DNA of 64,000 nucleotides from a virus (IMGVR_UViG_3300040801_003393:46539-110538); one strand, 5' to 3'; shown: positions 2,881-62,800, numbered from the stretch's first letter. A program made the numbers and translations. Notes: generated from the letters alone by a model not told the origin.

Positions 2881-2918
2881 TAATTTATCTCCATAAATAA
2901 TGCAACAGAGGTAAATTA
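2881..2918 (+). promoter_or_regulatory. Late-type TAAATA promoter inside an RBS-sequestering hairpin
   Basis: taatttatctc (2881-2891) pairs with gaggtaaatta (2908-2918, contains SD GAGG); TAAATA lies in the loop. Confidence 0.6.
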
Positions 2919-5900
2919 TGGCTACTACGTCGAGGCAGACCAGTTTATTTGGTGTAGAAGATTGGAAAAGAATTTATAAGACCTATAAAGAAGCAGATTT
3001 CCAATCGTATAATTTTGAAACATTACGCAAAACATTCATTGATTATTTGCGTCAGCACCACCCAGAAAGTTTTAACGACTATACTGAGAGCTCAGAATTT
3101 ATTGCAATCTTAGATTTGATTGCATTTATGGGACAGTCGTTAAGTTTCCGTAATGATTTAAATACCAGGGAAAACTTCTTAGATACAGCAGAACGCCGTG
3201 ATTCTGTAACTCGTTTAGCGAAACTGGTAGGCTATACACCAAAACGCAATGAAGCAGCAAATGGCTTTTTGAAAGTCGCAGCCATTTCTACGACCGAAAA
3301 TATCGTAGACTATAACAGAAACCAGCTCGCAAATTCTGTCATACGTTGGAACGACAAGACCAACGAAGATTGGCAGGAACAGTTTGCCACAGTATTAAAC
3401 GCAGTATTAGTTAATAGCCAACGCATCGGTCAACCAGGCCGGTCGGCTACTATTGTTGGTGTCAAAACCGACGAATATCAGATAAGAATGGCCGAGGGCT
3501 TTTTACCAGTAATACCATTTAGCGCCACAGTTGATGGGGTTAGAATGGACTTTGAGGTAGTTAATGCTACATCAACTGGTAAAACATATTTGTATGAACC
3601 AGCACCGCGCACAAATGGTCCGTTGAACATTTTGTATCGAGACGACAAATTAGGTTTCAGTAGCCCCGACACAGGATTTTTCTTTCATTTTAAACAAGGA
3701 CTATTGCAACGTCAAGATTTTACTTTATCGGATCGAATTGCTAATAGATCAGTTGACGTTAACATTCCTGGTACAAACAACGAGGATGTTTGGCTGTATG
3801 AAATTGGTTCCGGCAGTAATACATTATGGACAGAAGTTGAAAGCATCTATTCGTCGCAGTCCTCTCAGACTGAAATTGATGATCGTAGATTTTATTCCAT
3901 TACCAGTCGAACAGATGATCAAATTACATTAAACTTTGGAGATGGTGTATTTTCAACCATACCGATCGGCACATTTAGATGTTATGCTAGATCATCCAAT
4001 GGTTTAGAATATATTATTAACACCAGCGAAATACAGAATGTAGATATCGAAGTTCGATACATTAGTAAACTTGGGAGAGCAGAAACCGCGACCTTTACTT
4101 TAGCATTAACCAACCCTGTCAGCAACGCGAAAAATAGAGAAAATTTAACCGATATTAAACGCCGAGCTCCTGCTAGATTCTATACACAGAATCGTATGGT
4201 AAATGGTGAGGATTATAACAATTTCCCATTCACAAACTATGGTAGTATTATTAAAAGCAAAGCAATTAACCGTGCAACCATTGGCACCAGCCGTTATCTT
4301 GACTTAATTGATCCAACTGGAAAATATTCAAGCATTAATACATTTGGTGCAGACGGTATGCTTTATCAGGACTTATCTGAATCGTCCTTTACATTTACCT
4401 TCAATGATCGTAATGATATACAGTCAGTAATTGTAAATCAGGTTGAGCCATTAATTAGTAAAAGAGGAACAATTCATTTTTACTATGATCAGTTCTCCCG
4501 GGTACCATTGGATACGTTAAGTATTTTCTGGAACCAGAGCACTACGTTTACAAACGAGACGACCGGATATTTTAAAAATTCAGTAGGCACGCCATTGCCG
4601 ATTGCTTCATTTGTCAACGATAACCGAAAGTATATTGTTAGTGGCGCGTTGGTTAAATTTGTACCGCCAACTGGTTCTCACTTTAATGTCAATAATCGAA
4701 TTGAACCCGGATTACCAGTGAAAGCAACGGATAAGTTGGAAATATGGGCAAGTGTTCTTGACATATATCTCGACGGAACAAACTTCGGTGTTGGTAACTT
4801 TGATGATGGGTCCGGCCCAATTAAACTTAATAACTTCGTACCGTCGGGTGCGGTTCCAATGGAAATTATTTTGCCTTATAAGACCGATTTACCAGCTTCG
4901 TTAGAACAAGATATGTTGGTAGAAATTGAGCTATATCGTAATTTGGGACTGGGGTACGATCATATTAATAATGAATGGTACTTGATCACTCACGATAATA
5001 TTGACCTTGATGGTGAGTTTAGTATAGTCAATGCTCGTGCAACAAACAATTTAAATAACGATGCAAGTTGGCTAATTAAGTTTGAGTCAACCATTACAGG
5101 ATATGTAGTAACTTCTAGAACACTTAACTACTATTTTGCTAGTGTATTAGAAACTAGATTTTTCTTCGAGGGTAATCGTAAAATTTACGATCCCAAGACA
5201 GGAAAAATAGTTAATGATTTTATTAAAATACTAAAAACAAATGCTGCGCCAGACGATAACCGATCATTGAGTTCTGACATTGTATTAGATATAATTGATC
5301 AGAGTGTCGAGTCAGATGGATATATCAATGACTTCAACGTTGAGGTAAGTTTTACTGATAATGATAGTGACGGCTTAGCAGATGATCCAGATTTCTTTAA
5401 GAAATTTGTAAACCCCGACGTTAATATAAATGACAAAAAAGTATTCTTCCAGTCAACAGTTGACTTTGATAATCTCGAACGTTGGTTACCGGTGGCTCCA
5501 GGATCTATTAATTCAGAATACCCAACCGGCACAATTATAGGACAAGTAAAGACAGAGTATCCAGCTGGAACAGTGTTCTATGCATTTGAAGAAGATAAGT
5601 TTTATAGTTTAGATGTCAATGGAATTGCGCGAGAGGTTAACGAACGCTCGGACTATATTGCTCGGGTTGGCCGAGGGGACATACAGTTCCAGTATAGGCA
5701 CAATGCGCCAGACTCAAGACGTATAAACCCTGGGGTTTCAAACATCATCGATGTATATGTTGTAACTTCCGCATATTATGAGGCTTATAGAAGATATATT
5801 CAGGATACAACAAATAGAGTTCAACAACCGGCAGCCCCAACAACTGATCAGCTAACAGTCGAGTTTGATGGGTTACAAGATTATCGTATGATCAGTGATA

Positions 5901-6298
5901 ATATGATCTTAAATAGTGTTAAGTTTAAACCATTGTTTGGTGATAAGGCAGAACCTGCATTGCAGGCATTCATTAAAGTGGTAAAGTTACCTAACACGGT
6001 AATAAGCAACTCTGAGATAAAGAGTCAAATAATTTCGCATATGAATGACTATTTTGATATTAATATTTGGGACTTTGGCGATACGTTTTATTTCTCCGAA
6101 TTGTCAGCATACCTTCATAGCAAAATGGGTGACGCAATTGGGTCTGTTGTAATCATACCAAAAGATAGAACTCAACGATTTGGTAATTTATATGAAATAA
6201 AATCAGCACCCTATGAGATTTTTACTAATGCAGCAACAGTCAATGATGTTGAAATTATTGATGCATTAACCGCAAGCAAACTACAAATTGGTAATTAA
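2918..6298 (+). CDS. Baseplate wedge protein, gp6-like
   Basis: ENFLDTAERRDSVTRLAKLVGYTPKR, FGDGVFSTIP and QNRMVNGEDY motifs; follows the gp25-like gene. Confidence 0.85.
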   Translation: MATTSRQTSLFGVEDWKRIYKTYKEADFQSYNFETLRKTFIDYLRQHHPESFNDYTESSEFIAILDLIAFMGQSLSFRNDLNTRENFLDTAERRDSVTRLAKLVGYTPKRNEAANGFLKVAAISTTENIVDYNRNQLANSVIRWNDKTNEDWQEQFATVLNAVLVNSQRIGQPGRSATIVGVKTDEYQIRMAEGFLPVIPFSATVDGVRMDFEVVNATSTGKTYLYEPAPRTNGPLNILYRDDKLGFSSPDTGFFFHFKQGLLQRQDFTLSDRIANRSVDVNIPGTNNEDVWLYEIGSGSNTLWTEVESIYSSQSSQTEIDDRRFYSITSRTDDQITLNFGDGVFSTIPIGTFRCYARSSNGLEYIINTSEIQNVDIEVRYISKLGRAETATFTLALTNPVSNAKNRENLTDIKRRAPARFYTQNRMVNGEDYNNFPFTNYGSIIKSKAINRATIGTSRYLDLIDPTGKYSSINTFGADGMLYQDLSESSFTFTFNDRNDIQSVIVNQVEPLISKRGTIHFYYDQFSRVPLDTLSIFWNQSTTFTNETTGYFKNSVGTPLPIASFVNDNRKYIVSGALVKFVPPTGSHFNVNNRIEPGLPVKATDKLEIWASVLDIYLDGTNFGVGNFDDGSGPIKLNNFVPSGAVPMEIILPYKTDLPASLEQDMLVEIELYRNLGLGYDHINNEWYLITHDNIDLDGEFSIVNARATNNLNNDASWLIKFESTITGYVVTSRTLNYYFASVLETRFFFEGNRKIYDPKTGKIVNDFIKILKTNAAPDDNRSLSSDIVLDIIDQSVESDGYINDFNVEVSFTDNDSDGLADDPDFFKKFVNPDVNINDKKVFFQSTVDFDNLERWLPVAPGSINSEYPTGTIIGQVKTEYPAGTVFYAFEEDKFYSLDVNGIAREVNERSDYIARVGRGDIQFQYRHNAPDSRRINPGVSNIIDVYVVTSAYYEAYRRYIQDTTNRVQQPAAPTTDQLTVEFDGLQDYRMISDNMILNSVKFKPLFGDKAEPALQAFIKVVKLPNTVISNSEIKSQIISHMNDYFDINIWDFGDTFYFSELSAYLHSKMGDAIGSVVIIPKDRTQRFGNLYEIKSAPYEIFTNAATVNDVEIIDALTASKLQIGN

Positions 6299-6303
6299 CG
6301 ACT

Positions 6304-9300
6304 ATGGCAAGAATTCGAAGTGTAGATTTTCTACCAGAGATTTTTAAAACTACAACTAACAAAAAGTTTTTAGGTTCTACTCTTGATCAGTTAATACAAG
6401 AACCAAAACTAAAGGTAACACAAGGTTATATTGGCCGCAGGTCAGGCGCTGGGGTAGGGGTCAATGACACATATCTCATTGAGCCTACAGTCAGTCGGGA
6501 AAATTATCAGTTAGAGCCAGGTATTATTTTTAATGATAAGAATGGTGTTGCAGTTGATGCATTAACTTATCCTGGGTTAGTTGACGGGTTGAACGTGCGT
6601 GGAGCATTAGTTAATAACCACAATAGATTATTCGAAGCAGAGACCTATTCGTGGGACCCGCTGTTTAACTTTGATAAATTTGTAAATTATAGTCAATATT
6701 ATTGGCTACCGGAAGGTCCGTCGTCGGTTAACGTTCAAGCTGAAGAAGTATTGCTTGAAGATGAGTTCGATGTCTCTCGGAATGATGGTGATAGTTCATA
6801 CACCTTTTCCGGTAAAGCTGGTCAAAACCCAATTTTAACTTTAGTTCGTGGTGGAACGTATACATTTAATGTAGGACAAACTGGCCATCCATTCTGGATA
6901 CAAACTGAACCCGGATTGACGGGACATGTAAGTTGGGCGGAAAATATTTCTAGTAGAGAAATACTCGGGGTAGTAAACAACGGTGATGATAATGGTACTA
7001 TAACATTTAATGTTCCATTGAGCAACGGACAAGATTTCTACGACACACTACTTGACCTAGGTCCTGTCGACTTAGCAACAATGGTTAAATTTAATGAAAT
7101 TAACCGTAAGCCACTGGACGAAATCGTTTCAATTAACGAGATCGAAAACCTCGAAAATAAAACTATTGTATTTGTTAACCCAACGGTCGGCGATGCAACT
7201 ACCTTGGGTTGGGTAATCGAGGCATTACCAAATTATGCCGACTATAGTAATAGCGGAGATTTCAGCACCACAACCGTATTGACGTCGTTGTCAGAAAGAT
7301 ATCAGATTTTTAAAATTTTTATTGTATATGACAACTGGGGCGAAAACCCAATTATTAATTTGGTCCCTATTCAAACTGTAAATCAGTTTGAGAAGTTTAC
7401 TATTCAATATGGACCAGTGTATAGTAATATCGGCTTTTATAAAAATTCCTCCGGTGTATTTGAACAAATTCCGAGAATAACTGCACCACTTGACCAACTA
7501 TTCTACCAAGACGGCAACAATGAAGATATCTTTGGTGTTATTAACTTAGTTGACGCAAACGAATCAGCTACTTTGTTTATTTCAGATATCATTGGAAATG
7601 ATTCTTATACTAGCCCAAATGGCGTCGAGTTTACTAACGGTCTTAAAGTAAAATTTAGAGGCGATGTAGTTCCAGCAGAATATACCAACGAAGAGTATTA
7701 TGTAGAAGGTGTAGGCACATCTATTAAGCTATTACCGGTAAGAGATTTTATTACGCCTGAGCCATATACTAAAAATGCATCAGATCCATTTGACTCGTTG
7801 CCATACGATTCCATTGCATATGATGGTAGTTTAAACTCACCGCTTGAAGAAGATTACTTAACGATTAATAGAGCCAGTCAGGATCTGAACGCTTGGACTA
7901 GATCAAATCGTTGGTTCCATATTGATGTATTGCAAAAGTCGGCAGACTATAACAATGTAACATTGGTTGTAGATCAGACTAGTAGAGCAAAGCGACCAAT
8001 AATTGAATTCGAATCAAACTTGCAACTTTTTAACTTCGGCGCGGTTGCAAAAACACCCGTTAATGTAATAGATACAAAAGAAGTAGATGCATTAAGTAAC
8101 GTTCATGGTAGTCTGGGTTATGCAGTCGACGGATTTATTTTGTCCGAGGGCTCACGTATAATCTTTGCAGCCGATACTGACCCGAATGTAAAAAATAAAA
8201 TTTTTAATGTATCGTTTGAGGACCTGGACAATAGCGGAACAGAAACGTTAGTTTTAACGTTGGCCGAAGATGGCAACGTAGTTGAAGACGACGTAGTATT
8301 GGTTACCAGTGGATTAACGCAGCAAGGAAAAACATACCACTTTAGTAACAATCAGTGGGTATTAGCACAGCAAAAGAATAGTGTAAACCAGCCACCGTTA
8401 TTTGATATTTTTGACAACGACAATATTAGTTTCTCTGATATTTCAAAATACCAAGCATCAACATTTAAAGGAAGCAAACTTTTTAGTTATGCAATTGGTA
8501 ACGGTTCAAACGATATTGTATTAGGGTTCCCACTACAGTATCTAAACATTGGCAACCTTGGCGATATTGTTTTTGAAAATAACTTGTATATAGATACATT
8601 TTTGTATGTTGAAAATTCAGTCAGCCAGGAACTTCCAATTAGCAGTGGATTTGTTAAGCAGTTCTCATCAGCAACAGAGTACAATTGGCGCATTGGTTGG
8701 ACTAGATCTGCAGAAAGAATGTATGTCCCTCAAGTGTTTAACTTTACATATACCGGAGCACCATTACAATTAGATGTAACACCAAGAACAGATTTAGAAG
8801 TCCCGTCTATTAAAATATTTGTTAACAACTCTTTTGTTCCGTCAACAGATTATGCAGTAACGACGCATGACAGGGGAACGACGATTGCATTTAATGAAAT
8901 TGTTGCTACAGATTCAAAAGTAGAGGTGCTAATTTACTCTGACGAGGTTAGCGACATCGGTTACTATGAAGTGCCACGAAACCTGTCACAGAATATTTTT
9001 AATGAAAATACAGATAGGTTGACATTAGGAACAATTAGAAATCACTATAATAGCCTAGCACAAAATATTTTAAACCTAGTAGGAAATATCAACGGTGCTA
9101 ATAACATTAGAGACCTAGGCAATGTTTCGAGTTACGGCGATATTATAATACAGCATGCCGCACCGTTAGCATTGGCTGCTAAGTTTATTCGCACACGAGA
9201 GTACGACCTGTTTGAGGCAATTAAATTCAATGGTCGGTATTACGAAAAGTACAAGAATCAATTATTAGATTGGGTGCAAAAAAACGATATTGCAGATCTT

Positions 9301-12300
9301 TCAATTGACGAAATTTTAGAACATGCAGTAGCAAATATTACGGCTGGTAAAACCCTCGACCATGCATTTTATAATTCAGATATGTTACCAGCCGGCAATG
9401 ATTACGACGTTGTAACCCATCAAATTACAGCGATCAGTACAGATACATTCGATATCATTAATGTATATGATTTTACAAAGGCCAACTCGAAAGCCATATT
9501 AGTATATCTTAACGATACGCTGTTGGTTAAAGATCATGACTATATTGTAGCTGACGACGGCCCAAGGATAACACTATTAATCGACTCAAACATTGACGAT
9601 ATTTTGACAATAAAAGAGTACAGGGACACAGCTGGGTCAATGTTGCCTGCCACCCCAACCAAGTTGGGTTTGTATCCAAAGTATCTGCCAGAAAAGTTTG
9701 TAGACAATACATTCATTACACCAACTGAAGTTATTAGGGGTCACGACGGATCTATAACCGTTGCATTCGGTGACCTTAGAGATGACGTTTTGTTAGAATT
9801 TGAACGTCGCATATACAATAACATCAAGGTCAATGATAATATTCCGTTGTTATCTGATGATGTTATACCAGGACAGTATCGTAATACTGGTTATTCAGAT
9901 ATTGAAATAACAGAAATTCTGTCACCGTCATTCTTATCTTGGGTTGGTTGGAACCGACTTGATTATAGGGAGCAAGACTATAGAGCAAATGATAGTCGCA
10001 CCTGGAACTATAGCTCTTCGAGTAGCGTAATAGATGATTCTCTCTTAAAAGGTCATTGGCGTGGAGTATTCAAATATTTCTATGATACAGACGCTCCACA
10101 TACACGACCATGGGAAATGTTAGGTTTAACTGAAGAGCCATCCTGGTGGGAAAATCAGTACGGTCCTGCACCATATACATCAGGCAACTTAGTTCTATGG
10201 GATGATCTAGAAGCTGGTATAATCCGGGACCCAAATGGAGAGTATATTGACGAAAGATATATTCGTCCAGGACTAACAGATATAATTCCTGTCGACGGCG
10301 AAGGTAATTTACTAACGCCAATGGAAACGGTTGTTAAGACCTATTCGTCATACAACTTTAAAAAATCCTGGAGAATCGGCGATTTGGCACCAGTTGAGGC
10401 TGCCTGGAGACGTTCTTCATTATGGCCGTTCGCAGTACAACGATTGTTGGCCCTAACTAAGCCAGCACAATATTTTGCACTAATGGCTGACAGAGATCGT
10501 TACACATATAACGAGGAACTTCAGCAGTACCTATTAGATGGAAGATACCGTCTTGATTCTCGAGCAATCGAAGTATTAACATCGGATACTCCAAAACACA
10601 GTTACATTAACTGGATTATTGAATACAATAAACATTATGGTTATAACTCGGCTGACGAATTAGTTGAGAGTTTAAGTAACCTTGATGTTAACCTTTGCTA
10701 TAGAATGGGCTCATTCACTGATAAGAATAGACTGAAGATTTTTACAGATAAGAGCTCGCCAGATTCTACTAACAATAGTTTACTCCTACCAGATGAAAGC
10801 TATAACTTGTTACTGTATAGAAACCAACCATTTGACGAAATTATATATTCATCGGTTATTGTACAAAGAGTTGAAGACGGATATTCAGTATTTGGTAACT
10901 CAACAACTGACCCGTATTTTAAAATAATGCAGAGCATTCCAAATGGAAACTTTAAAACTTTCCAAATTGGTCGAACAACAAAGTCAGCAACAACTATTAG
11001 AGTTCCGCAGGACTTTAGAGATTCTGTAGTTTACATTCCATACGGATACGTCTTCTCCAATAAGCACCAGGTAGTAGATTTCTTAGTAAGTTACGGTGAA
11101 TACTTGTCTCGTGTTGGTGTCAAATTTAACAACAGTCAAGATACAGTAGATCTCGATTGGACACAAATGGCCAAGGAGTTTATATACTGGGTTGATCAGG
11201 GTTGGAGTATTGGAAGTGTTATTAACCTAAACCCAACAGCAGAATCATTGGAGTTTGAGCGAGAGTTAGCAATTGTTGATAGTTTACTTAATTTAGCAGT
11301 TAATGAGCAACCTCTCGATCAAAACAATATACCATTGGCGCCTGCTGATTATGTAATCGATCGACTTGAGAATAACTTTAAGTTGACGACACTCAATGAT
11401 CGCATTTTAAGTTACCTAAATCTCCAGTTAACCAGCTTCGAACACTTGTTAATATTAGATAACACAAGTATTTTCAATGATGTAATTTATTCGCCAGTGA
11501 CCGGAGTCAGGCAGAACCGAGTTAAACTTGTTGGCTATACAGTTAACGAGTGGAACGGTCAACTTGATGCGCAAGGATTTTTATTTAGTGACAATAAAAT
11601 TGATGAATGGGTCTACACAAAATCCTATAGTAAAGGAAGCATTGTTAAGTTTAAGAATTCATATTGGACTGCAATAAAACCAATAAACCCATCGGAGATG
11701 TTTGATTACGACGCATGGGTTAAGATCGAGCCTAGCGATATATCAACTGGATTGTTATCTAACCTAGCTACAAAGTCTGATCAAATGTTGCAATTCTATA
11801 ACAATAAAACTGCAAACCTTGAATCAGATGCAGATTTGTTGGCATTAGGTTTAACTGGTTTTAGACCTCGTGAGTATATGTCATCATTGGATCTAGACGA
11901 CATCTCGCAGGTAAACATCTATAGTGACTTAATAAAACAAAAAGGAACTTTAGACAGTTTAGGAATGTTTAAGAACATAACACTAAACGGAAACAAAACT
12001 GAATATAAGATTTTCGAAAACTGGGCAATACGTCGGGCACAATATGGTGCAACTGCGTCGCGAGCTTATTTTGAATTGCAACTAGACGAAGCGCAGCATA
12101 ACGCAAATCCAACGTCAATTGCTATAGTAAATGGCCCAACTGAAGTAACAGATGCTGACCAGAAAGTTACTCTGAATCAGATTTACAAACAAAGTGTAAA
12201 GCATACCTCAAAAGATATTTTACCTTTGTTAACTGAAAAAGTTACAGACGTAAGTCTACCATATGCTGGATTTGTTGACTTTGAAGATGTAGATTTCTAT

Positions 12301-15300
12301 ACCTTCTCGTTAGATACGTTTGAAACCATTGACGCAAATTTAAGTGATATAATTGATAGTACACTAATTTGGGTCGCTAAAGATACAGATTATGACTGGA
12401 ACGTATATCGTGTTACCGCTATAAGTCCGCCTGTTGTTCGAGTGCAAGATAACTTAAATGGAACTTTAACAATTGAGTTTGCAGCACCACACCAGCTAAC
12501 AGCAAATACAGTTATTATTATCAAGTATTTTGATAGTCAGATAGATGGAACATATCGAGTTAATGGAATTGTTAACGAAAAGAAGGTACAAGTCAATGGA
12601 TCATTGTTAGAAGATCAAACAGTAATTGAAGATGAAGTTGGCTCGGCGTTTAAGTTAGTGTCAGTTAGGGTTGATTACCCATCATCAATTGTAGACTCGC
12701 CATTTGACAAGCAATTATTTGCTGATGATCGTATTTGGGTTAACAATGACGGTGGATTAGCGAGAGTATATGAGAAAGAACGTGCGTTTACTTCAGTTGG
12801 ATCACTCGAGTCAACTGTATCTTCGAGCGAGTCTGATTTTGGATCAGCAATTGCGCAAGGAAGAAACAATACCGGGGCAATAGTTGGCGACGTGCTTAAT
12901 AATGGTAGCAAAGGTATACTTTATTGCTATAATAAGGCTACAGCATCAGAATATATTTTACATAGCTTATTAGACTTATCGCATTTACCAGTTAACCATT
13001 TAGGAAAAACGCTAGCAATGGCAACCAATGTTGCTGCGGTAGCGGCTGATGGCATGGTAGCAATTATTAATCGTAATGTTGCTAAGGACGTATTTGAGTT
13101 TACACAAATATTACCAGAATACCCAAGTGGGTTTGGTCAGGCAATTACAATAAGTGCCGATGAACGTTGGTTGTTTATTACCGAGTACGAGCAATTTTCC
13201 GATGACCCATATCTGACTCTTGATACGCAACGGTTGCACATTTACCAGCAAATTAAATATCAGGACCAGGAAGTCACCTATACTGCCACCGGAACACAAA
13301 CACAGTTTGAATTAGAAGGATATGTTGTAATAGGTACAACAGCGTCGGCAAATAATCAGGTAACTGTTACAGTTAATGGAAATAAAGTAACAAATTATGT
13401 TGTAAATGGGCCAACTATACAATTTACATCTGCACCACCAGCTGGCGCCATTGTAAATATTCGTCGTAACGATATACAAACATTTGAAAGTGACGGTTCA
13501 ACTACTACATTTACAGTTAATGGACTGCATGCTATTAACGGCATTGAGTCTATTTCTGTATATGTTGAGAATAAGATTTTACGTCCGAACGAGGACTATA
13601 CCTTTAGTGGCATAGATTTAGAATTGTTAGTTGCACCACCAGCAGGAGATGCAATAACCGTAAGAACGGGCAACTATTATGTCGAAGTGTCGGAGATAGA
13701 TTTTAACGTTGATGATGCACAATATGGTTTATCCATTGATGTTGGCGAAGATGCCCAACAAATAGTTGTTGGCGCACCTGGACTTTCTGAACATGGGCCA
13801 AGTAGTACAACCGTTAATAATGTTGGGCGAGTTATACTTTACAATAGAGCAGTTGAACGGTTTGTTGCTACAATAGATGGGCAAGCCGGCGTTACAACTT
13901 TACGCACACCTAAGGCAACATCTCAAGTTTGGGTGAATGGTGTACCTCTAGAGCCTGCACAGTTTAATAAAAACCCACAGTATACAATAAGTGGAAATAT
14001 TATAACCTTAACTGGTGTTGAAATTAAGGCAGGTGATTTTATTGATGTTGACATTAATGATTTCATAGACTATCAAACATTAGATATAAACGTCCCACGT
14101 GAAGATGCTCTTTTTGGTAGCGCAGTTAGCCTATGTCGTTCGGAGTGTGCATTGTATGTAGGTGCACCTGGCGACATAATCTCAGGGAAGAAAGATGCAG
14201 GTTCAGTGACACGATTTGTTAATATGTCAAGAATGACTGGGGTACTAGTTGGTACAAATCAAAATCCAACAGTCACAGTTGGCGATTCAATTAGAGTTAA
14301 CAACGTTGAGGTTATTTTTACCAACACGAATGTTGAACAAGTAGCTACCGACATTAATAATACGTTAATACCTAACGTACGAGCATATGTAAGTGATGGA
14401 TACTTGGTTATTGAACTTAAAAATAAAGAAGTAGCATCTTTAGCTAATAGGTTGAAAGTTACACCTGGGCGGTCAGCAATCAATAACGACATTGAGGCGT
14501 TTAATAACTTAGGTTTAGCTCCATATCAGTATACTCAAACAATTACCGCTCCAGATCCAGAGAGTTTTGGTCGATTCGGAAATGCTGTACAAATTGATTA
14601 TAACATGAATCAGTTGTATGTTGCAGCCGAGAACATGAGTGCGAAAAAGATTGCTATATTTGATAATAGAGAGACAACGTTTGACGGAAGAACTTTACGA
14701 TTTGTTGATATATACGATCGATCTGGTGTAGTTTATACATATGATGTTCTACGTGACGAGACTAGATTTACTCCAGGTAAACTAGCATATGGTGAACAAG
14801 TATACGACTTTAAATTGCAAAATTCAAATGGATTTGGCCAACGCATTAGTGTAGTTGATGGACTAATGATGGTGGGTTCACCAGGATATGACGAGCCAAC
14901 TGTTGATGCTGGTAGGGTTGCATTGTTCTATAACTTCAAGCGTAAGCTGACCTGGACTGACATTAAAGTTGAACAGCCTAGAACAGACGTAACGTTAATT
15001 AATAGCGCATTTATCTACGACTACACAACAAGTCAAGTAAAACAATACCTTGACTATATCGATCCATTGAATGGAAAAATACTAGGCCCAGCAGCACAAA
15101 ACCTAGATTACATTCGCGGCGACGATCCAGCACAATACATGGCCTCTACCGAAGGCCCATTATGGGGCGAAGCACAAGTTGGCCAAATGTGGTGGGATAC
15201 ATCTACGGTACGATTCCTAGACTATTTCCAGGATGATATTAAGCGCGGTTTGAAACGATGGGGTAAAACTTTCCCAGGTAGTTCCATTGATGTTTACGAA

Positions 15301-19854: not shown

Positions 19855-19881
19855 CGATATTTTAGAGGATAAATAACGTAC

Positions 19882-20031
19882 ATGGATAATAAAGATAACA
19901 AAAGCCAAGTCCCTCAGCAGGAACCAAAAAAGAAACCTGATGAGCTTAGCGGTATACAAGTTGACGAGTTTGTTAAGATTTTTGACCCAAACTCAAGTGA
20001 GGTTTTTGTTGCTAAACGAGGTGAATCTTAA
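19882..20031 (+). CDS. Small 49-aa protein absent from the ORF track (MDNKDNKSQVPQQEPKKKPDELSGIQVDEFVKIFDPNSSEVFVAKRGES)
   Basis: TAAATA a few nt upstream; stop overlaps the next ATG; resembles the N-terminus of the next protein. Confidence 0.7.
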   Translation: MDNKDNKSQVPQQEPKKKPDELSGIQVDEFVKIFDPNSSEVFVAKRGES

Positions 20032-23952: not shown

Positions 23953-23965
23953 AATATGTTATACT
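23937..23965 (+). promoter_or_regulatory. Sigma70-like promoter for the glycosylation/radical-SAM locus
   Basis: TTTACA-17 nt-TATACT, overlapping the 3' arm of the terminator. Confidence 0.55.
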
Positions 23966-23985
23966 TTAATGTAACGAGGTATAAC

Positions 23986-24303
23986 ATGTCTAACCAAGAT
24001 TCCTTAGTTGCTCAAATCAAATATCGGTTTGATCACGAAGCAGCCAAAAAAACACTTAAAGAAAAATATGAAGCCAAAATGCTTTTTGCAGCGTTTGGCG
24101 GAATGTGGCGAGCCGGCCCAAATCTACTGTCAACACTGAACTTATTACACAGTGGCGTATCCGATGAAGCCGTGTTAGTCGACGAATATGGAAATCCCTG
24201 TAAAGTAAATGTTTTGTTGCTTAAAACTGAAGCAATGTCCCGTTGGCAGGAACAAATGAATGCCTGGTTGATAGAATTTGAAGAATTGCAAAGGCAACGA
24301 TGA
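23986..24303 (+). CDS. Hypothetical protein, first gene of the modification locus
   Basis: SD GAGGT before ATG 23986; overlaps the next gene by 4 nt. Confidence 0.7.
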   Translation: MSNQDSLVAQIKYRFDHEAAKKTLKEKYEAKMLFAAFGGMWRAGPNLLSTLNLLHSGVSDEAVLVDEYGNPCKVNVLLLKTEAMSRWQEQMNAWLIEFEELQRQR

Positions 24304-43607: not shown

Positions 43608-43880
43608 TTAGGCCTCCGTGGTCTCTTCTGTTGTTTCTTCTGCTTCAGTGGCCTGCGGCTGCGGAGCAATCGATTGTAAGAATGAAGTTAGTCGGGTGTA
43701 GGTGTTTCCAACTACTGCCATCTCTTCAGCACGAAATGCACCACGACGTGCAACCACGTCAATGATTTGCTTTAAATTAGCAAGGTCGTTAAGAGTTAAG
43801 GAAACTGGAGCAGCCGCGGAAGTAACGGCCTCTTCGGAAGCGCCAGCATCAGTAACTTCGGTATTGGTATCTTCTAACAT
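43608..43880 (-). CDS. Small acidic hypothetical protein, late-controlled
   Basis: SD GAGG; TAAATA and anti-RBS hairpin upstream. Confidence 0.7.
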   Translation of the reverse strand: MLEDTNTEVTDAGASEEAVTSAAAPVSLTLNDLANLKQIIDVVARRGAFRAEEMAVVGNTYTRLTSFLQSIAPQPQATEAEETTEETTEA

Positions 43881-43960
43881 AAAAATCCTCTTGTGGTTAA
43901 ATTATATGCTATTATTTAACACAATAGCAACCCACGAAAGAATTTTTTGATGTTAGAAGA
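43870..43960 (-). promoter_or_regulatory. RBS/start-sequestering hairpin enclosing a late TAAATA promoter
   Basis: tcttctaacat/atgttagaaga arms plus a further ~15 bp of pairing across the SD; TAAATA at 43913-43918. Confidence 0.75.
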
Positions 43961-44231
43961 ACAGGGAGAAGAGTGTAGCCTCGGCCGGATTTTCGAAACC
44001 AATGAATCGATTTTGGATTATAAATCGGGTCCCGTTATCTTGTTGATCAACTAGTGCGATTCGTCCGTCGGTATTTTTAATGAGCCACTGTAGCAAGTCT
44101 GGGAAGTCAATCTCTGACTTTAACTCCATTTTGATAAAATGGTCTGGCATAACCTTTAGGAAACGAAGCCGATGCCAATCAATCGGCTTCGTTTCCTCAA
44201 GCATTGCTTCAAAGTCGATATCGCTGCTCAT
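43953..44231 (-). CDS. Hypothetical protein
   Basis: Start re-assigned to MSSDIDFE, 1 nt after the vWA gene stop. Confidence 0.6.
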   Translation of the reverse strand: MSSDIDFEAMLEETKPIDWHRLRFLKVMPDHFIKMELKSEIDFPDLLQWLIKNTDGRIALVDQQDNGTRFIIQNRFIGFENPAEATLFSLFF

Positions 44232-45552: not shown

Positions 45553-45581
45553 ATTATACTGGGTTGCCACCCAAAAGTCAA
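45553..45581 (-). promoter_or_regulatory. Sigma70-type early promoter
   Basis: TTGACT-17-TATAAT. Confidence 0.8.
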
Positions 45582-47075: not shown

Positions 47076-47104
47076 ATTATAGTTGACCTGCGTTACAGTG
47101 TCAA
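47076..47104 (-). promoter_or_regulatory. Sigma70-type early promoter
   Basis: Perfect TTGACA-17-TATAAT. Confidence 0.85.
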
Positions 47105-47254: not shown

Positions 47255-47283
47255 ATTATAGTGGTATTGACTGCAAGTGTCAA
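47255..47283 (-). promoter_or_regulatory. Sigma70-type early promoter
   Basis: Perfect TTGACA-17-TATAAT. Confidence 0.85.
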
Positions 47284-47369: not shown

Positions 47370-47786
47370 TTACTCTTGCCCTTCAAAAGGGTCATGCCGG
47401 ATGTCTAGGCCCTTATGCTGCCCTTGACTGTACTTGGCCCAGAATGCGTCAGAGTTAACGTTTCGGTTTTTTGGGTTGGATGATAGACCCTTTGCACCAT
47501 GTTGTTTCTTTGCAATATTAAGGGCTTTGGTGTACAGCATTTTCCCTAATCCCTGCCTACGAGCCTCGCGGGCTAAGAATACGTTTTCGATACTTGGATA
47601 TCCTTTTACTTCAAGTCCGATGTCGATAACTCCGATTTGGTTTGGATACTTGAATATGCGTTGATATGTTTCTGGCAAAGAATCGCGATCAATGTCAAGA
47701 TCGCTCAGAACATGAATGCGAAAACCATTCTGTCCGTATTGTTCTGTTTTGTATTCCACATTGTGGGCAAATTCGTATAATCGCAT
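47370..47786 (-). CDS. GNAT-fold acetyltransferase-like protein
   Basis: VFLAREARRQGLGKMLY matches the acetyl-CoA-binding R/QxxGxG motif; N..AFW; TAAATA 4 nt upstream of the ATG. Confidence 0.7.
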   Translation of the reverse strand: MRLYEFAHNVEYKTEQYGQNGFRIHVLSDLDIDRDSLPETYQRIFKYPNQIGVIDIGLEVKGYPSIENVFLAREARRQGLGKMLYTKALNIAKKQHGAKGLSSNPKNRNVNSDAFWAKYSQGQHKGLDIRHDPFEGQE

Positions 47787-48859: not shown

Positions 48860-49357
48860 TTAATCTCCTAGTTTTTCAATTTTAATGTTAGCTTTTTGAA
48901 GAAACTCAATTCCGGCTGTGTTGCGATATAACTCTTGATAATACACTTCACTGATTCCGGCCTGGTGGATAAGTTTAGCGCATTCAATACAAGGCGAATG
49001 GGTGCAAAACATAACAGCACCCTGCCCCGAAATTGGACTTTTTGCTAACTTGGCAATTGCATTTGATTCGGCATGCAAAACTTCTGGCTTGGTTACAAGT
49101 TTGTAACGTCGACCGTTGTCATCCTGATATGGCCATTTCTCATCAATTGTTTCTGGGTCGAGCCAAGCACCAGCGTCTGGATCCATGTACTCAATATTTT
49201 CGCAAGCATTGTCCCATCCACTGGGAGTACCATTATAGCCAAATACTAAATTGTTGTCATTGACAATAACGGCGCCAACCTTCAGCCTCACTGCATGAGA
49301 GCAGTTAGCAAAAGAGTGAGCGTTTTCCATGTATGCTTTTTTGAGTTTGTCTTTCAT
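48860..49357 (-). CDS. dCMP deaminase
   Basis: KVGAVIV, GYNGTP, HAESNAI and SPCIEC zinc motifs. Confidence 0.93.
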   Translation of the reverse strand: MKDKLKKAYMENAHSFANCSHAVRLKVGAVIVNDNNLVFGYNGTPSGWDNACENIEYMDPDAGAWLDPETIDEKWPYQDDNGRRYKLVTKPEVLHAESNAIAKLAKSPISGQGAVMFCTHSPCIECAKLIHQAGISEVYYQELYRNTAGIEFLQKANIKIEKLGD

Positions 49358-49535: not shown

Positions 49536-49611
49536 TGGAGCTGGCGGTCGGACTCGAACCGACTATCTCCTGATTACAAGTCAGGTGCATGACCTGTTAT
49601 GCTTCGCCAGC
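49536..49611 (-). tRNA. trnT: tRNA-Thr(UGU) with encoded CCA
   Basis: 76-nt cloverleaf: GCTGGCG/CGCCAGC acceptor, GCAT/ATGC D-stem, CCTGA-ctTGTaa-TCAGG anticodon arm, GTCGG-TTCGAGT-CCGAC T-arm. Confidence 0.93.
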
Positions 49612-51420: not shown

Positions 51421-51728
51421 AATTTGATTTTTACTCTGCAGTTATAAAAGCTATTCAAAATTGCAACAGTCACAATAGCTAAGTCAACGAGCACAAAGTA
51501 ACAAACTAATGCTATGGTATTTAAATCGAGACTAACTAGGGTTGCTGCATAGAATGCCTGTAATAGAAAATTTACACCCTGGTATAAAGTTAAAATAGCA
51601 CCAATTATGATTGTTTGAATTTTAAATTTATTAAAATGGCTTATCATCCAGGTCAAATTTAAAAAGACAAAAACAAACGAAACAATTCCGCCCAGTTGAA
51701 TTACATTTTCGGCTAACTCGGGACTCAT
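51417..51728 (-). CDS. Small three-TM membrane protein (holin-like candidate)
   Basis: Three hydrophobic segments; coupled to the upstream coiled-coil/TM gene. Confidence 0.55.
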   Translation of the reverse strand: MSPELAENVIQLGGIVSFVFVFLNLTWMISHFNKFKIQTIIIGAILTLYQGVNFLLQAFYAATLVSLDLNTIALVCYFVLVDLAIVTVAILNSFYNCRVKIKL

Positions 51729-52144
51729 TGTTTAATAAACTCCTGTACAATGTACAACAATATGGTCGTAACCAGGCCAATCATTGCCCATATAATTTTC
51801 TCATTGGTGTTAACTTTAACAACACTGCGATTTTGCACAGCATGCAAGTTTTGTATGCTTTCTGTTGTTTGAGATACGGCATCATTAATTAATCTCATTG
51901 AAGCTGAGATTTGATCAATGCTGTCGTTAATATCGCGACGTAACGTTTCTACTCGTTCCCGAATCGATTCTTTTTGGTCGTCGCTTTTTAATAAGAGATC
52001 GGATTTTAATTCCGTAACACGCCGGTGAAATTCATCTCGCAAAATTGTAACCTCAGAGCTAACCTTTGCCAATTCGCGATCAGCCTGGTTTAACCGCTCT
52101 TCAACGCGCTCAATTCTTCGTAAAAAATCTGGACTAAAATCCAC
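51725..52144 (-). CDS. Coiled-coil protein with C-terminal TM helix, late-controlled
   Basis: Heptad-rich body, C-terminal IIWAMIGLVTTILLYIV; GTG start with SD GGAG. Confidence 0.65.
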   Translation of the reverse strand: MDFSPDFLRRIERVEERLNQADRELAKVSSEVTILRDEFHRRVTELKSDLLLKSDDQKESIRERVETLRRDINDSIDQISASMRLINDAVSQTTESIQNLHAVQNRSVVKVNTNEKIIWAMIGLVTTILLYIVQEFIKQ

Positions 52145-52148
52145 TACT

Positions 52149-52189
52149 CAAATCTCCAATTCTTATATATTTATTAAATTGGAGATTTG
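52149..52189 (-). promoter_or_regulatory. RBS-sequestering hairpin enclosing a late TAAATA promoter
   Basis: Perfect 13-bp inverted repeat caaatctccaatt/aattggagatttg covering the SD; TAAATA at 52168-52173 in the loop. Confidence 0.8.
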
Positions 52190-52202
52190 TTAAGTGTTAG
52201 CA

Positions 52203-52526
52203 TTAAACTCCGAAGGAAGAGCCGCAACCGCACGTTGTTGTTGCGCTAGGATTGTTAATAGCGAACATATCGCCTTCGAGTCCGGTTTTATAATCGAGCG
52301 TGGCCTCGCTAAGATACATGGAACTCATTGGGTCAATTACAGCCTTCACTCCATTGCGTTCAATTATAAGATCATCCTCTGCTGGACCTTCCTCTTCAAA
52401 TTGAAAGCCATATTGGAACCCGGAGCATCCGCCACCGCGGACATAAATCCTTAAACAACGACTCTCAATATTTTCTTCATTGACGAGCCGTTCAATTCTG
52501 TCAAATGCTGCATCAGTAATGTTCAT
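52203..52526 (-). CDS. erpA: A-type Fe-S carrier protein (ErpA/IscA)
   Basis: LRIYVRGGGCSGFQYGF, IDPMSSMYL and NPSATTTCGCGSSF motifs. Confidence 0.9.
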   Translation of the reverse strand: MNITDAAFDRIERLVNEENIESRCLRIYVRGGGCSGFQYGFQFEEEGPAEDDLIIERNGVKAVIDPMSSMYLSEATLDYKTGLEGDMFAINNPSATTTCGCGSSFGV

Positions 52527-54596: not shown

Positions 54597-54725
54597 TTAT
54601 CGCGGTACGCAACCGCCATTATTAACTATTAAGAATAGTAATAAGAGTCCTGCCAGCAGCATAGGCAGATACAGATTTACGATGCTGCTTAATTTTGGTT
54701 TTTCAATCGGACTCTGTTCGTCCAT
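54597..54725 (-). CDS. 42-aa single-TM peptide absent from the ORF track (MDEQSPIEKPKLSSIVNLYLPMLLAGLLLLFLIVNNGGCVPR)
   Basis: SD AGGAG, TAAATA and anti-RBS hairpin upstream. Confidence 0.65.
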   Translation of the reverse strand: MDEQSPIEKPKLSSIVNLYLPMLLAGLLLLFLIVNNGGCVPR

Positions 54726-54778
54726 AAGATTCTCCTAACTGCATATCTTATTTATGCAGTATATTAGAAGAATCTTAT
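54724..54778 (-). promoter_or_regulatory. RBS/start-sequestering hairpin enclosing a late TAAATA promoter
   Basis: ataagattcttctaa/ttaggagaatcttat (15 bp, one G:U) plus inner ctgcata/tatgcag; TAAATA at 54749-54754. Confidence 0.8.
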
Positions 54779-54786
54779 AAAGTCAA

Positions 54787-55360: not shown

Positions 55361-55361
55361 C

Positions 55362-55818: not shown

Positions 55819-55827
55819 AATTAAGAA

Positions 55828-55962: not shown

Positions 55963-55980
55963 AATATTCTCCAATATAAC

Positions 55981-56694: not shown

Positions 56695-56695
56695 A

Positions 56696-57730
56696 TCAGC
56701 TCATACCCAAAAACATTGCAATACCTGCAATTATTGCTACCGCACCAAGAACTATCCATGTTGGATTGATCTTTTTAATTTTGTTTATAATAACAGAAAC
56801 TTGCTCGCTTGTCGATGGTTTTGAGTCTTCAATTGCCTCAACTGCTTCTTCGACTAATTCCTCGCCAGGAACAGCCAAAAACGTTTCATTGAAATATCGC
56901 TCCGAGCCATTTAGTTCTGGACGTTGCGCGTATCCATATGCAACCATAAAGTCGTTCATCTTTTTAACTAAGTCACGATAGGTGATTTTATAGTTGTGTT
57001 TCTTGAGGGTATTTATTAAGGCATACGTGGCTGCTCCACAATACATATTGTCAATCCGAGCGTCTGCTGCGGTTTGTTGCGATTGACATCCAGATATCAT
57101 TAGTCCAACATTATCAATATCTCGACTTTGTACTGATCTTTTTGGTACGCCTATATCTAATCCTAAGCCGCGATTTAAAATATCTGCTGGCATCGGTAAT
57201 GCACGAGAACGGGCATGATCATCTTTATCATTGGTTAGTGTATAGTTGTATTCAGATTTTTCAGTTGGTGGCTGCCATTGGTTCATGTGGTCCATTCCAG
57301 AACCACTGTGGCAACAATCGAGTACAACCGTAAGTTGAACACCAGCTGGAACCTTATCGAATATTCTTTTTAAATCGTCATCTCGTATAACTTTTTCGCG
57401 CCAATCTAAATCAACCGGGCAAATGATCTCGTCGAGTTTATCTGGTTCTTTGTTTAAATCGTAATCGGTGTCGATAGTTTGAGATCCATGACCACTATAG
57501 TGGAAATATAAAGTATCGCCAGGTTCTGCGTCTTTAACTAACCACTCAAGACGTTCTAAAATATTTGCTGTAGTTGCGGATTCGTCAGTTAGCATTCTTT
57601 TGTCAGTTGATTTGAATCCGAAATGCGTGGTTAGCATATCACTAACCATCAATACGTCATTGACGCAACCGCGTAATGGGGCTGTTGGATAGGTGTTGAT
57701 TCCAACGAGCAATGCACGTTTCTTTGCCAT
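56696..57730 (-). CDS. Metacaspase (peptidase C14) with C-terminal TM anchor
   Basis: RALLVGINTY, LRGCVND, HYSGHG (His) and DCCHSG (Cys) catalytic motifs; hydrophobic C-terminal helix. Confidence 0.92.
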   Translation of the reverse strand: MAKKRALLVGINTYPTAPLRGCVNDVLMVSDMLTTHFGFKSTDKRMLTDESATTANILERLEWLVKDAEPGDTLYFHYSGHGSQTIDTDYDLNKEPDKLDEIICPVDLDWREKVIRDDDLKRIFDKVPAGVQLTVVLDCCHSGSGMDHMNQWQPPTEKSEYNYTLTNDKDDHARSRALPMPADILNRGLGLDIGVPKRSVQSRDIDNVGLMISGCQSQQTAADARIDNMYCGAATYALINTLKKHNYKITYRDLVKKMNDFMVAYGYAQRPELNGSERYFNETFLAVPGEELVEEAVEAIEDSKPSTSEQVSVIINKIKKINPTWIVLGAVAIIAGIAMFLGMS

Positions 57731-57791
57731 GTTCCTCTCCTAATAGGGTATTATTATACTATACCCGTATTTATTAAGAGTTATGGCAAAG
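57722..57791 (-). promoter_or_regulatory. RBS/start-sequestering hairpin with late TAAATA promoter upstream of the metacaspase
   Basis: ctttgccat/atggcaaag and ctcttaata/tattaggag pairings; TAAATA at 57768-57773. Confidence 0.75.
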
Positions 57792-59777: not shown

Positions 59778-59838
59778 AGGAACGTCCTTTTAGCGTTGTT
59801 GCGAGTATTTAGCCCTACATAATCAAATTATTATAAGA

Positions 59839-61227: not shown

Positions 61228-61252
61228 GCGCCCTCTCTGTTAATGTCTGCAT

Positions 61253-61281
61253 ATTATACCTGAATCGGAGTGGGCTGTCAA
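61253..61281 (-). promoter_or_regulatory. Sigma70-type early promoter
   Basis: Perfect TTGACA-17-TATAAT. Confidence 0.85.
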
Positions 61282-61306
61282 CCAAATTTTAGTAATTAAA
61301 GTAGTA

Positions 61307-61789: not shown

Positions 61790-61798
61790 TTTTGTTCC

Positions 61799-62749
61799 TT
61801 AGTAACCCGGCTCCTCGCCTGGAGGTAGCAACGGACCACCACCATCACCTGGGTCAATATACCTTTCTTCAAAAACAATTAACGTTGCAAACCAGGCGAT
61901 ACCGGTGGTTCCTTGTTCTCTTAATCGTATAGAAACTTCGTGTGTTGATTCACCGTCGAGTTGAGGGGTCGAATCATTTAAACTAATAGTTTGGTAGATG
62001 GCAGAGCTAGGCGCAGTTAACGTGCTAACAACATACGATTCGTCGGACGTAGCTGGGTTTAGAATGTTCCCATCTAGATATAGTCTCGCAAATACTGTTC
62101 CGGCAGTTACATCTGCACTAGCAGTAACCGTCGCAAAAATATGCAACCTAGAACTTTCCTCTACTTCAATATCGGTGATGCTTAAATAGTCAGCAAATGC
62201 GCCCGACAGATTTTGACTAGCTCCCATTTGCTGGAATAATACTTGGCGGATTACTCCAGCCGAACCAACGGCTGCATCAACGTATTCTTTAATGCTTCTC
62301 TGGGTTGCTAAAATCGAATCGGAATCGTCGCCTAATGTTCCGTCATCTAAAATAGCTGTAATTGGATACCCGCCCGGCAGCGAAAGTTGATTAATGGTGG
62401 CAGTTTCGACGTGCAAGTCTCGGAACCGCTCGGTGCTGGTTCCTAGGTCAACGGTATTGTTAACCGCCGGCACTAAAATACCATCACGTAGGTACAATTG
62501 TGTTTCGGCTGCTCCAGCAACATCAACCGCAAATTGAATTTCGTTTAAATTGCCGTTAGCAAAAACGAAGTTAAAATTATCCGGAGAGGCAATTCTGGGA
62601 ACTAGCGCCCCGTTGCTAGCAGTGCCATCATGACTGTGCCCAGTTGATGCGCTAAATGCTGCTTCTACGCTATCATATTCATCATTGAAATCCTCGGCAT
62701 CAATTCTGTCTCCGGGGATTTTAGCAAAAACTCGTGTATAACCTGCCAT
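61799..62749 (-). CDS. Tail-fibre-like virion protein outside the main tail module
   Basis: MAGYTR..FNDEY..TGHSHDGT, DLGTSTERFRDLH and LATQRSIKEYVD motifs; late promoter upstream. Confidence 0.65.
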   Translation of the reverse strand: MAGYTRVFAKIPGDRIDAEDFNDEYDSVEAAFSASTGHSHDGTASNGALVPRIASPDNFNFVFANGNLNEIQFAVDVAGAAETQLYLRDGILVPAVNNTVDLGTSTERFRDLHVETATINQLSLPGGYPITAILDDGTLGDDSDSILATQRSIKEYVDAAVGSAGVIRQVLFQQMGASQNLSGAFADYLSITDIEVEESSRLHIFATVTASADVTAGTVFARLYLDGNILNPATSDESYVVSTLTAPSSAIYQTISLNDSTPQLDGESTHEVSIRLREQGTTGIAWFATLIVFEERYIDPGDGGGPLLPPGEEPGY

Positions 62750-62800
62750 GCTGGCTCCTATATGTGCAATACATATATTTAGCCAGATTGGCAGGTTATA
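62737..62800 (-). promoter_or_regulatory. RBS/start-sequestering hairpin with late TAAATA promoter
   Basis: tataacctgcca/tggcaggttata, ctggct/agccag and tatatgt/acatata stems; TAAATA at 62776-62781. Confidence 0.8.

Follow-up and report, generated by a model that had tools for sequence, protein, structure and literature searches.

Six genes in a 64,000-nucleotide (nt) stretch of viral DNA, positions 46539 to 110538 of the IMG/VR virus record IMGVR_UViG_3300040801_003393 (the window), carry the motif TAAATA inside an inverted repeat whose downstream arm covers the ribosome-binding site (RBS). The best explanation for five of these hairpins, those at sites 2 to 6, is probably a promoter-dependent translational switch of the type known from bacteriophage T4, with site 1 being marginal. 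In such a switch, an mRNA reading through from upstream would carry both arms; the stable hairpin formed by these would sequester the Shine-Dalgarno sequence (SD), the start codon, or both, and binding of the 30S ribosomal subunit would be blocked. RNA polymerase with a gp55-type late sigma factor would start about 6 nt downstream of the (A)TAAATA core that lies between the arms, and the late transcript, lacking the 5′ arm, would have its RBS open. At a site located in an early, sigma70-driven transcription unit (sites 2 and 5, and probably sites 4 and 6), this would lead to late-only protein synthesis. At sites 1 and 3, which follow late transcription, the device would do no more than tie translation to the gene's own promoter.

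Hairpins over ribosome-binding sites

The window is the final part of a 110,538-bp record, referred to here as the contig, for which CheckV estimates a completeness of 31%. Positions are those of the window unless the contig is named. A preliminary description of this DNA had listed six inverted repeats, and all of them are present (Table 1). At every one of the six, as had been described, the 3′ arm lies on the SD and/or the start codon and TAAATA lies between the arms, so that the predicted late RNA lacks the 5′ arm. The distance from TAAATA to the start is 18 to 37 nt. Also as described, the arm sequences are unrelated between sites, apart from an anti-SD core. The SD of site 5 is covered by the pair CUCUU/GGAGA, and the SD flank of site 6 is covered by the pair CUGGCU/AGCCAG, followed by an inner 7-bp stem.

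The genes behind these hairpins are of several kinds. Site 1 precedes a baseplate wedge gene (phrog_10646), and the site 5 product contains a Peptidase_C14 (caspase) domain (E value of 5.6e-33). Sites 2, 3, and 4 precede genes for small proteins without an assigned function. The first ∼160 residues of the site 6 protein (MAGYTR...) are common to hundreds of uncultured-phage proteins, some of which have a PF13884 tail-fiber chaperone domain, and a structural, late role is therefore plausible for this gene.

TABLE 1 Positions of the six sites and of other elements mentioned in the text (aa, amino acids; ORF, open reading frame; arm positions taken from ViennaRNA folds)
Feature	Position	Strand	Remark
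Site 1 stem, 11 bp (one G-U)	2881-2891 / 2908-2918	+	Masks SD GAGG and A of ATG, gene 2918-6298
Site 1 TAAATA	2894-2899	+	Within 16-nt loop
Site 2, nested stems	43960..43870	-	Upstream of 90-aa gene 43608-43880
Site 2 outer stem	43960..43950 / 43880..43870	-	Over ATG and the 8 nt after it
Site 2 second stem	43947..43937 / 43891..43881	-	Over SD
Site 2 TAAATA	43918..43913	-	Between arms
Site 3 stem, 14 bp	52189..52176 / 52162..52149	-	Masks SD GGAG, 139-aa gene 51725-52144 (GTG start)
Site 3 outer helix, 4 bp	52142..52196 (element span)	-	Over GTG
Site 3 TAAATA	52173..52168	-	In loop
Site 4 outer stem, 14 bp	54778..54765 / 54737..54724	-	Masks SD and AU of ATG, 42-aa ORF 54597-54725
Site 4 TAAATA	54754..54749	-	Carried on inner 8-bp hairpin
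Site 5, nested hairpin	57722..57791	-	Upstream of caspase-domain gene 56696-57730
Site 5 outer stem, 9 bp	57791..57783 / 57730..57722	-	Over ATG; inner stems also present
Site 5 TAAATA	57773..57768	-	Between arms
Site 6, three-tier hairpin	62737..62800	-	Upstream of 316-aa gene 61799-62749
Site 6 outer stem, 12 bp	62800..62789 / 62748..62737	-	Over UG of ATG and the next codons
Site 6 TAAATA	62781..62776	-	Between arms
Sigma70-type analogue, 9-bp stem	23956..23990	+	Masks RBS of 105-aa gene 23986-24303
Leaderless-type TAAATA genes	47370-47786, 52203-52526	-	
Sigma70 promoter, 12/12	61281..61253	-	Promoter scan
Sigma70 promoter, 12/12	47283..47255	-	Promoter scan
Sigma70 promoter, 12/12	47104..47076	-	Promoter scan
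Sigma70 promoter, 11/12	45581..45553	-	Promoter scan
Sigma70 promoter, 11/12	49260..49232	-	Promoter scan
Transfer RNA (tRNA) gene	49539-49611	-	Rfam RF00005, 64 bits; early-like region
T4 masked genes regB, nrdC.8, denV, and gene 1	L036 12279-12740, 3358-3885, 14939-15355, 24649-25374	-	

Two RNAs per site were folded with ViennaRNA, a read-through RNA that began some 10 nt ahead of the 5′ arm and ended at +25 and a late RNA beginning at the sixth nucleotide after TAAATA, and 200 dinucleotide shuffles per site served as the control. The read-through RNAs of sites 2, 3, 4, 5, and 6 gave energies of -36.2, -21.1, -30.5, -34.0, and -36.1 kcal/mol and z scores of -7.18, -4.35, -7.47, -4.92, and -5.52, respectively, with 0/200 shuffles equal or better at each site. 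In these five folds, both the SD and the start codon are paired. The predicted late RNAs were about unstructured, with z scores from -0.8 to +1.4 (-0.4 at site 2 and +1.4 at site 6). Folding of the long and short transcripts had been proposed as a check along with the preliminary description, and it bore out the expectation at sites 2 to 6, where the RBS is buried in the long form and freed in the short one, and weakly at site 1.

We also calculated an opening energy, which is the cost of unpairing positions -14 to +4, for an RNA spanning -90 to +30 and for an RNA starting at the predicted late transcription start site (TSS). From the long to the short RNA, the opening energy fell from 10.0 to 2.6 kcal/mol at site 1, from 19.9 to 4.2 at site 2, from 22.1 to 6.8 at site 3, from 21.5 to 7.9 at site 4, from 16.8 to 4.2 at site 5, and from 25.5 to 5.7 at site 6. 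The top six differences among the 112 called genes that make up the contig gene set, ranging from 12.6 to 19.9 kcal/mol, belong to sites 6, 2, and 3, a gene at contig 17637-18203, and sites 4 and 5; the difference at site 1 is 7.4 kcal/mol. Among genes with an upstream gap of at least 40 nt, a difference above 10 kcal/mol was found for 6 of 14 TAAATA genes versus 0 of 32 genes without TAAATA. As a positive control, the same metric gave decreases from 15.7 to 1.6 kcal/mol for T4 gene e, from 15.6 to 3.3 for gene 49, and from 16.5 to 5.7 for segB, and gene e ranked second among the genes of a 50-kb T4 segment. The opening energies of sites 2 to 6 (16.8 to 25.5 kcal/mol) are thus of the same size as those of the three T4 genes (15.6 to 16.5 kcal/mol), and at least as strong. 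The energy metric was added because a strict test for perfect stems of at least 9 bp fails to pick up T4 e. An early metric, the pairing probability of the RBS with anything upstream of the TSS relative to shuffled upstream sequence, had too high a null in these AU-rich leaders and was dropped.

The stem test was applied across the contig and recorded the longest perfect Watson-Crick stem with a 3′ arm overlapping -14 to +12 of the start and a partner no more than 90 nt upstream. Stems of at least 9 bp were found at 8 of the 112 genes, compared to 1.15 to 1.5 expected at random genome positions (Poisson P value of 1.6e-4), and stems of at least 11 bp were found at 4 genes, compared to 0.17 to 0.31 expected. 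A mirror control, in which the RBS of contig genes is paired with a downstream partner, yielded no stems of at least 9 bp. Equal frequency by chance, which the preliminary description had named as grounds for abandoning its proposal, is not what these counts show. TAAATA is enclosed by 7 of the 8 masking stems versus 7 of the remaining 38 among the 46 genes whose upstream gap is at least 40 nt (Fisher P value of 4e-4).

The repeats might instead act at the DNA level, as a cruciform or an operator for the late promoter, or be functionless quasi-palindromes in AT-rich spacers. Such an origin would be in keeping with arms that are perfectly Watson-Crick paired over 9 to 13 bp, with antisense strands that fold as well or better at sites 1, 5, and 6, and with the position of site 1 inside the shuffle range. 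However, z scores of -4.4 to -7.5 at sites 2 to 6, none matched by any shuffle, and eight stems where about 1.5 are expected and the mirror control has none, argue against chance. With arms that differ from site to site, a common protein operator is absent. A flanking repeat is lacking at most TAAATA promoters (∼18 of 25 here and >75 of 86 in G006, a complete 344-kb genome of a relative), and the repeat is therefore not needed for promoter use. At sites 2, 3, and 4, G-U pairs give the sense RNA greater stability than its antisense counterpart, and orthologues keep the layout with changed arm sequences, as detailed below. The sense/antisense comparison is mixed overall and does not settle RNA-level versus DNA-level function. 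Taken with the other evidence, a DNA-level role is unlikely, and we regard this explanation in its entirety as very improbable.

TAAATA as a probable late promoter

Within 40 nt upstream of starts on the contig, TAAATA occurs 29 times in the sense orientation versus 8 times in the antisense orientation. Three relatives show the same bias, with 29 versus 7, 24 versus 3, and, in G006, 86 versus 16 occurrences. G006 and two other closer relatives, G007 and G008, were found via a neighboring 431-aa gene and are 74 to 76% identical for that protein; the median identity between the contig and G006 is 53.5% over the 69 contig proteins with a G006 match. Further relatives that were surveyed include G001 (152 kb) and G003 (113 kb). 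TAAATA is kept upstream of the baseplate wedge gene in almost all of 35 relatives, with 41 to 64% protein identity. It is likewise kept upstream of the site 2 gene (g90) in ∼30 relatives, the orthologues nearly always carrying the motif.

The contig encodes a gp55-family late sigma factor at contig 40114-41028 on the minus strand, 5.5 kb before the window. The match to phrog_12791 has an E value of 6.7e-75, and comparison with T4 gp55 itself gives an E value of 4e-6. A near-consensus sigma70 promoter precedes this gene. These in silico results support the view that TAAATA behaves as a T4-type late promoter, with a core that is shorter than the 8-mer of T4.

In T4 late promoters, the +1 position is the sixth nucleotide after TATAAATA, which occupies -13 to -6. 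In four genomes (the contig, G006, G003, and G001), the spacing from TAAATA to ATG shows a sharp peak at exactly 5 nt, with 37 cases, 25 of them in G006. Considered together with the T4 placement of +1, the peak therefore leads to the prediction of a large group of late mRNAs without a leader, which would begin at the A of the ATG, and it supports the TSS assumed for the short RNAs above. Leaderless spacing is unmentioned for Rak2-like phages in the passages and abstracts checked. One of the two leaderless-type genes in the window, 47370-47786, and a plus-strand gene at contig 19812-20360 both open with ATGCGATTAYACGAA and have TAAATA 4 nt before the ATG; the two are probably paralogues with the same leaderless-type promoter.

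The motif has been noticed before in a related setting. Passages of the paper on phage CBB predict ATAAATA as a late promoter upstream of structural genes in Rak2-like phages, CBB and GAP32 among them, and note a gp55-like sigma factor (PMC5259590). RBS-masking hairpins and leaderless spacing go unmentioned in the passages that a term search located in that paper. The present phage is only distantly related to CBB and GAP32.

Upstream transcription and competing explanations

Tail and baseplate genes and a modification island occupy the plus strand of the window between 1 and 39 kb, and the minus strand, from 40 to 64 kb, carries small genes, mostly without known function, with several consensus sigma70 promoters and intrinsic terminators. 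The preliminary description had proposed that the hairpins keep late genes silent within early-transcribed regions, and this part of the proposal fared differently from site to site. Sites 2 and 5 lie downstream of an 11/12 sigma70 promoter (45581..45553) and a 12/12 sigma70 promoter (61281..61253), respectively, with no minus-strand terminator predicted in between, and judged from these promoter calls they fit late genes inside early units. The proposal did not stand at sites 1 and 3, where the upstream transcription appears to be of the late type. At site 6, an upstream promoter would lie past the contig end.

Several observations weigh against a late-only switch, and they are gathered here. 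A strong upstream sigma70 promoter without an intervening terminator is clear only at sites 2 and 5. Site 1 is within a late structural operon, and site 3 follows an ErpA-like gene that has a TAAATA-N5-ATG arrangement as its only visible promoter; the device therefore cannot be a temporal switch at these two sites. Sigma70-like hexamers matching at 10/12 positions overlap the 5′ arm of site 4 (TTGACT-17-TATACT, 54786..54758) and lie inside the hairpin of site 2 (43930..43901), and the internal promoter therefore need not be late. Such 10/12 matches are no commoner than in shuffles (49 versus 41.9 ± 7). Site 1 is also the weakest on folding, its read-through RNA having an energy of -12.9 kcal/mol and a z score of -1.16, with 24/200 shuffles equal or better, and in the 35 relatives that conserve its TAAATA the hairpin is absent or only faintly conserved. 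At sites 1, 5, and 6, the sense RNA has no stability advantage over the antisense.

The same side of the balance includes a site outside the window and the survey of other genomes. On the minus strand at contig 17637-18203, the SD of a gene for 188 aa is masked by a 12-bp hairpin whose 10-nt loop contains TAAATA. A U-run follows this hairpin (contig 17637-18260), giving it a terminator-like look, and the G006 orthologue has a 10-bp hairpin with changed arms and no TAAATA in the loop. This hairpin may function as a terminator or attenuator. In G001 and G003, long masking stems were not in excess, and there are only 1 to 2 strong energy outliers, all with TAAATA. The excess in G006 is only mild, with 7 stems of at least 10 bp versus 2.8 expected and none in the mirror control; there are ∼4 strong TAAATA cases in its 344 kb, and several other stems enclose sigma70-type promoters. 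The earlier suggestion that this phage uses the device systematically is not upheld. The contig has six strong cases in 110 kb, and for T4 about ten have been published in 169 kb, a similar and not a higher density, and the arrangement is rarer in G001, G003, and G006.

Stop codons are the last of the adverse points. The stop codon of the preceding gene falls in the 5′ arm at site 2 (gene 43953-44231) and at site 6, and at site 5 the 5′ arm ends on the stop codon of an upstream GT4 gene. On long mRNAs, a ribosome terminating at any of these three sites could therefore open the hairpin. This raises the alternative of translational coupling, in which the ribosome finishing the upstream gene melts the 5′ arm, downstream translation is proportional to upstream translation, and the internal promoter is an extra entry point. 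The details at sites 2, 5, and 6 suit it well, since the stop codon is in the outer 5′ arm or directly next to it, the following stem starts 2 to 10 nt beyond, and the stop-in-arm arrangement (GTATAAC) is retained in the G006 orthologue of site 6. Site 4 is borderline, with an arm starting ∼5 nt past the stop. However, at sites 1 and 3 and at two further contig sites outside the window, the 5′ arm lies 11 to 26 nt past the stop and is beyond a terminating ribosome, and coupling leaves the enclosure of TAAATA in 7 of 8 hairpins unexplained. Moreover, in T4 e the gap to the upstream ORF is about as short, and yet the long transcripts that form its hairpin yield ∼100-fold less lysozyme than those without the structure (PMC3014915). 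On balance, we consider coupling unlikely as the explanation of the six sites.

A further alternative is that the hairpins serve in RNA processing or stability, for instance as RNase III-type sites or protective 5′ or 3′ stems, or are leaky terminators, and that they overlap the RBS only because promoter and start lie close together. Composite stems of 23 to 35 bp at sites 2, 4, 5, and 6 would be long enough for double-strand-specific nucleases, and with TAAATA 18 to 37 nt from the ATG, any 3′ arm must hit the RBS region. The contig 17637-18203 hairpin, with its U-run and its orthologue lacking TAAATA, is also of the expected kind. However, an Rfam scan found no family overlapping any of the six hairpins, its only match in the window being the tRNA gene. 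The terminator scan made no call at sites 2 to 6, site 1 being outside the scanned range. No U-tract follows the hairpin at any of the six sites, and the loops or inner structures span 13 to 70 nt. Neither the association with TAAATA nor the absence of downstream partners (0 versus 8) is explained by processing, which also fails to account for the relatives in which the hairpin gives way, at the same gene, to a terminator and a leaderless late promoter. This explanation is improbable in our judgment. On the results of the scan at sites 2 to 6 and the lack of U-tracts at all six sites, intrinsic terminators were rejected. Two other candidates were also rejected, PeSL-type repeats or a common operator because the arms are unrelated, and N4-type hairpin promoters because the stem and loop sizes are wrong.

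Conservation in relatives and comparison with known systems

Orthologues of the genes at sites 2, 3, and 6 in relatives, at 32 to 54% identity, have the same layout of a 5′ arm, TAAATA, and a masked SD or ATG, with different arms. In the G006 orthologue of site 6, TAAATA is 27 nt before the ATG and the outer stem is unchanged (GUAUAAC/GUUAUAC, including the upstream stop codon). The stem flanking the SD is altered on both sides, with CUGAACU.../...AGUUCAG in G006 versus CUGGCU/AGCCAG in the window. The long RNA of this orthologue folds at -27.7 kcal/mol with a z score of -5.83, and the short RNA has a z score of +1.7. In G008, a UCCUGC-TAAATA...GCAGGA hairpin lies over the SD of the site 6 orthologue (z score of -2.54). 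The site 3 orthologues in G006, G007, and G008 each have TAAATA and a stem masking the SD, with unrelated arm sequences, and in G007 the 5′ arm abuts the promoter as it does in T4 gene 49. At site 2 in G006, an 11-bp stem lies over +5 to +15, and its arms enclose TAAATA. G006 lacks orthologues of sites 4 and 5, and no homologue of the site 5 caspase-like gene was found in G006 to G008.

A comparison of arms in related phages had been suggested as a check, and its outcome was divided. The layout is kept with different arms at sites 2, 3, and 6, but the arms could not be aligned, and RNAalifold was therefore not usable as a formal covariation test. For the site 6 and site 3 orthologues, the consensus energies were near zero, and only 4 and 7 pairs, respectively, had double changes.

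The site 2 gene was also found in ∼30 more distant relatives (L055 to L127), which usually have an intrinsic terminator followed by TAAATA-N5-ATG. A few relatives have nonhomologous masks instead, such as a 13-bp stem over the ATG in L087 and a 10-bp stem in L110. The presence of a terminator or a mask at the same gene suggests that these are alternative ways of insulating a gene with a late promoter from upstream transcription.

A variant with a different promoter type is located on the plus strand of the window at 23956..23990. The stem there encloses a sigma70-like TTTACA-N17-TATACT sequence, not TAAATA, and the opening energy falls from 13.1 to 5.5 kcal/mol. The masked gene is the first of the modification island, just 3′ of a strong terminator, and the arrangement is kept in the G006 orthologue (311924-312241; opening energy difference of 9.3).

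The switch proposed for sites 2 to 6 is, as a mechanism, textbook T4 biology, and what is new here is the distant phage lineage. It is documented for T4 e, soc, 49, I-TevI, I-TevII, I-TevIII, and segB and for Aeh1 mobE, and in the T4 cases, the long transcripts of the early or middle class fold and yield little protein, and the late ones are without the 5′ arm (PMC3014915, PMC2988022). The present hairpins resemble those of T4 in that the SD and/or AUG is sequestered and a late promoter of the TATAAATA type lies within the 5′ arm or adjacent to it, and in both cases the phage encodes a gp55-family sigma factor. The differences are several. The clade here is that of a distant Rak2-like or uncultured jumbo myovirus known from sequence alone, and the promoter core is the shorter (A)TAAATA. 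Several of the hairpins are longer and multitiered (23 to 35 bp), with a 5′ arm 20 to 45 nt upstream of the promoter. These 5′ arms reach the last codons of the upstream gene, whereas the 5′ arm of T4 e, 49, and segB abuts or includes the promoter. The regulated genes also differ, here being those for a caspase-like protease, a tail-fiber-like protein, and small proteins of unassigned function.

Other systems offer partial parallels. In the coupling of RNA-phage coat, replicase, and lysis genes, a hairpin closes the downstream RBS, as here, and at sites 2, 5, and 6 the 5′ arm is similarly at the end of the upstream ORF. Unlike those phages, the present one has a promoter between the arms, and at half of the sites the arms are beyond a terminating ribosome. 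The PeSL cassettes of T4-type phages are intergenic modules of a promoter and a stem-loop in variable regions, and they are repeated, mutually homologous, and equipped with early promoters. They resemble the present elements in combining promoter and stem-loop, but the arms here are unrelated between sites and the enclosed motif is late.

A more general proposal is that, among the uncultured jumbo myoviruses of this clade, a promoter within an RBS-masking hairpin constitutes a general, fast-evolving insulation module that is interchangeable with a terminator plus a leaderless promoter and is used with both gp55- and sigma70-type promoters. It would include leaderless mRNAs as a major class, with 25 genes in one complete genome, and a late wiring not described for T4. 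We put this forward tentatively, as a possibility about which we have considerable doubt. The leaderless spacing class and the interchange of terminator and mask at one gene are the more original by-products of this work.

If the T4-type switch operates at these sites, the late-only translation paradigm of T4 would also hold in jumbo phages that use gp55 and belong to a very distant, uncultured branch, with nonhomologous hairpins whose layout would be conserved by selection and not by descent of sequence. It would also provide a sequence-only rule to flag genes kept from translation off read-through mRNA, which in this DNA would be those for the caspase-like protease, the tail-fiber-like protein, and several small proteins of unassigned function. 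The TAAATA-N5-ATG peak could calibrate the late transcription start and so aid in annotating metagenomic jumbo phages.

A search of a phage collection at the nucleotide level gave no match to the contig. The baseplate wedge protein shows 34 to 35% identity to those of Agrobacterium phage Atu_ph07, GAP32, CBB, and other Rak2-like jumbo myoviruses, with 34% for Atu_ph07. Single-protein searches of IMG/VR with the site 5 and site 6 genes returned no matches. A protein 75% identical to the site 6 product (P0002) is encoded on a 77.7-kb contig. A profile search with the site 6 N-terminal domain provided 68 distinct upstream regions, used as a negative control only, and none of the 68 had TAAATA or a masking hairpin. 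The gene context upstream of those proteins looks podovirus-like to us.

With the energy metric used above, strong upstream RBS masking without TAAATA was also observed at T4 regB, nrdC.8, denV, and gene 1 (Table 1). The masking device, or autoregulatory structures, may be wider in T4 than the late-promoter cases alone. Directly 3′ of the baseplate wedge gene in the window, a single plus-strand ORF at 6304-19854 encodes 4,516 aa, and its orthologues in G001 and G003 have 4,321 and 4,638 aa, respectively.

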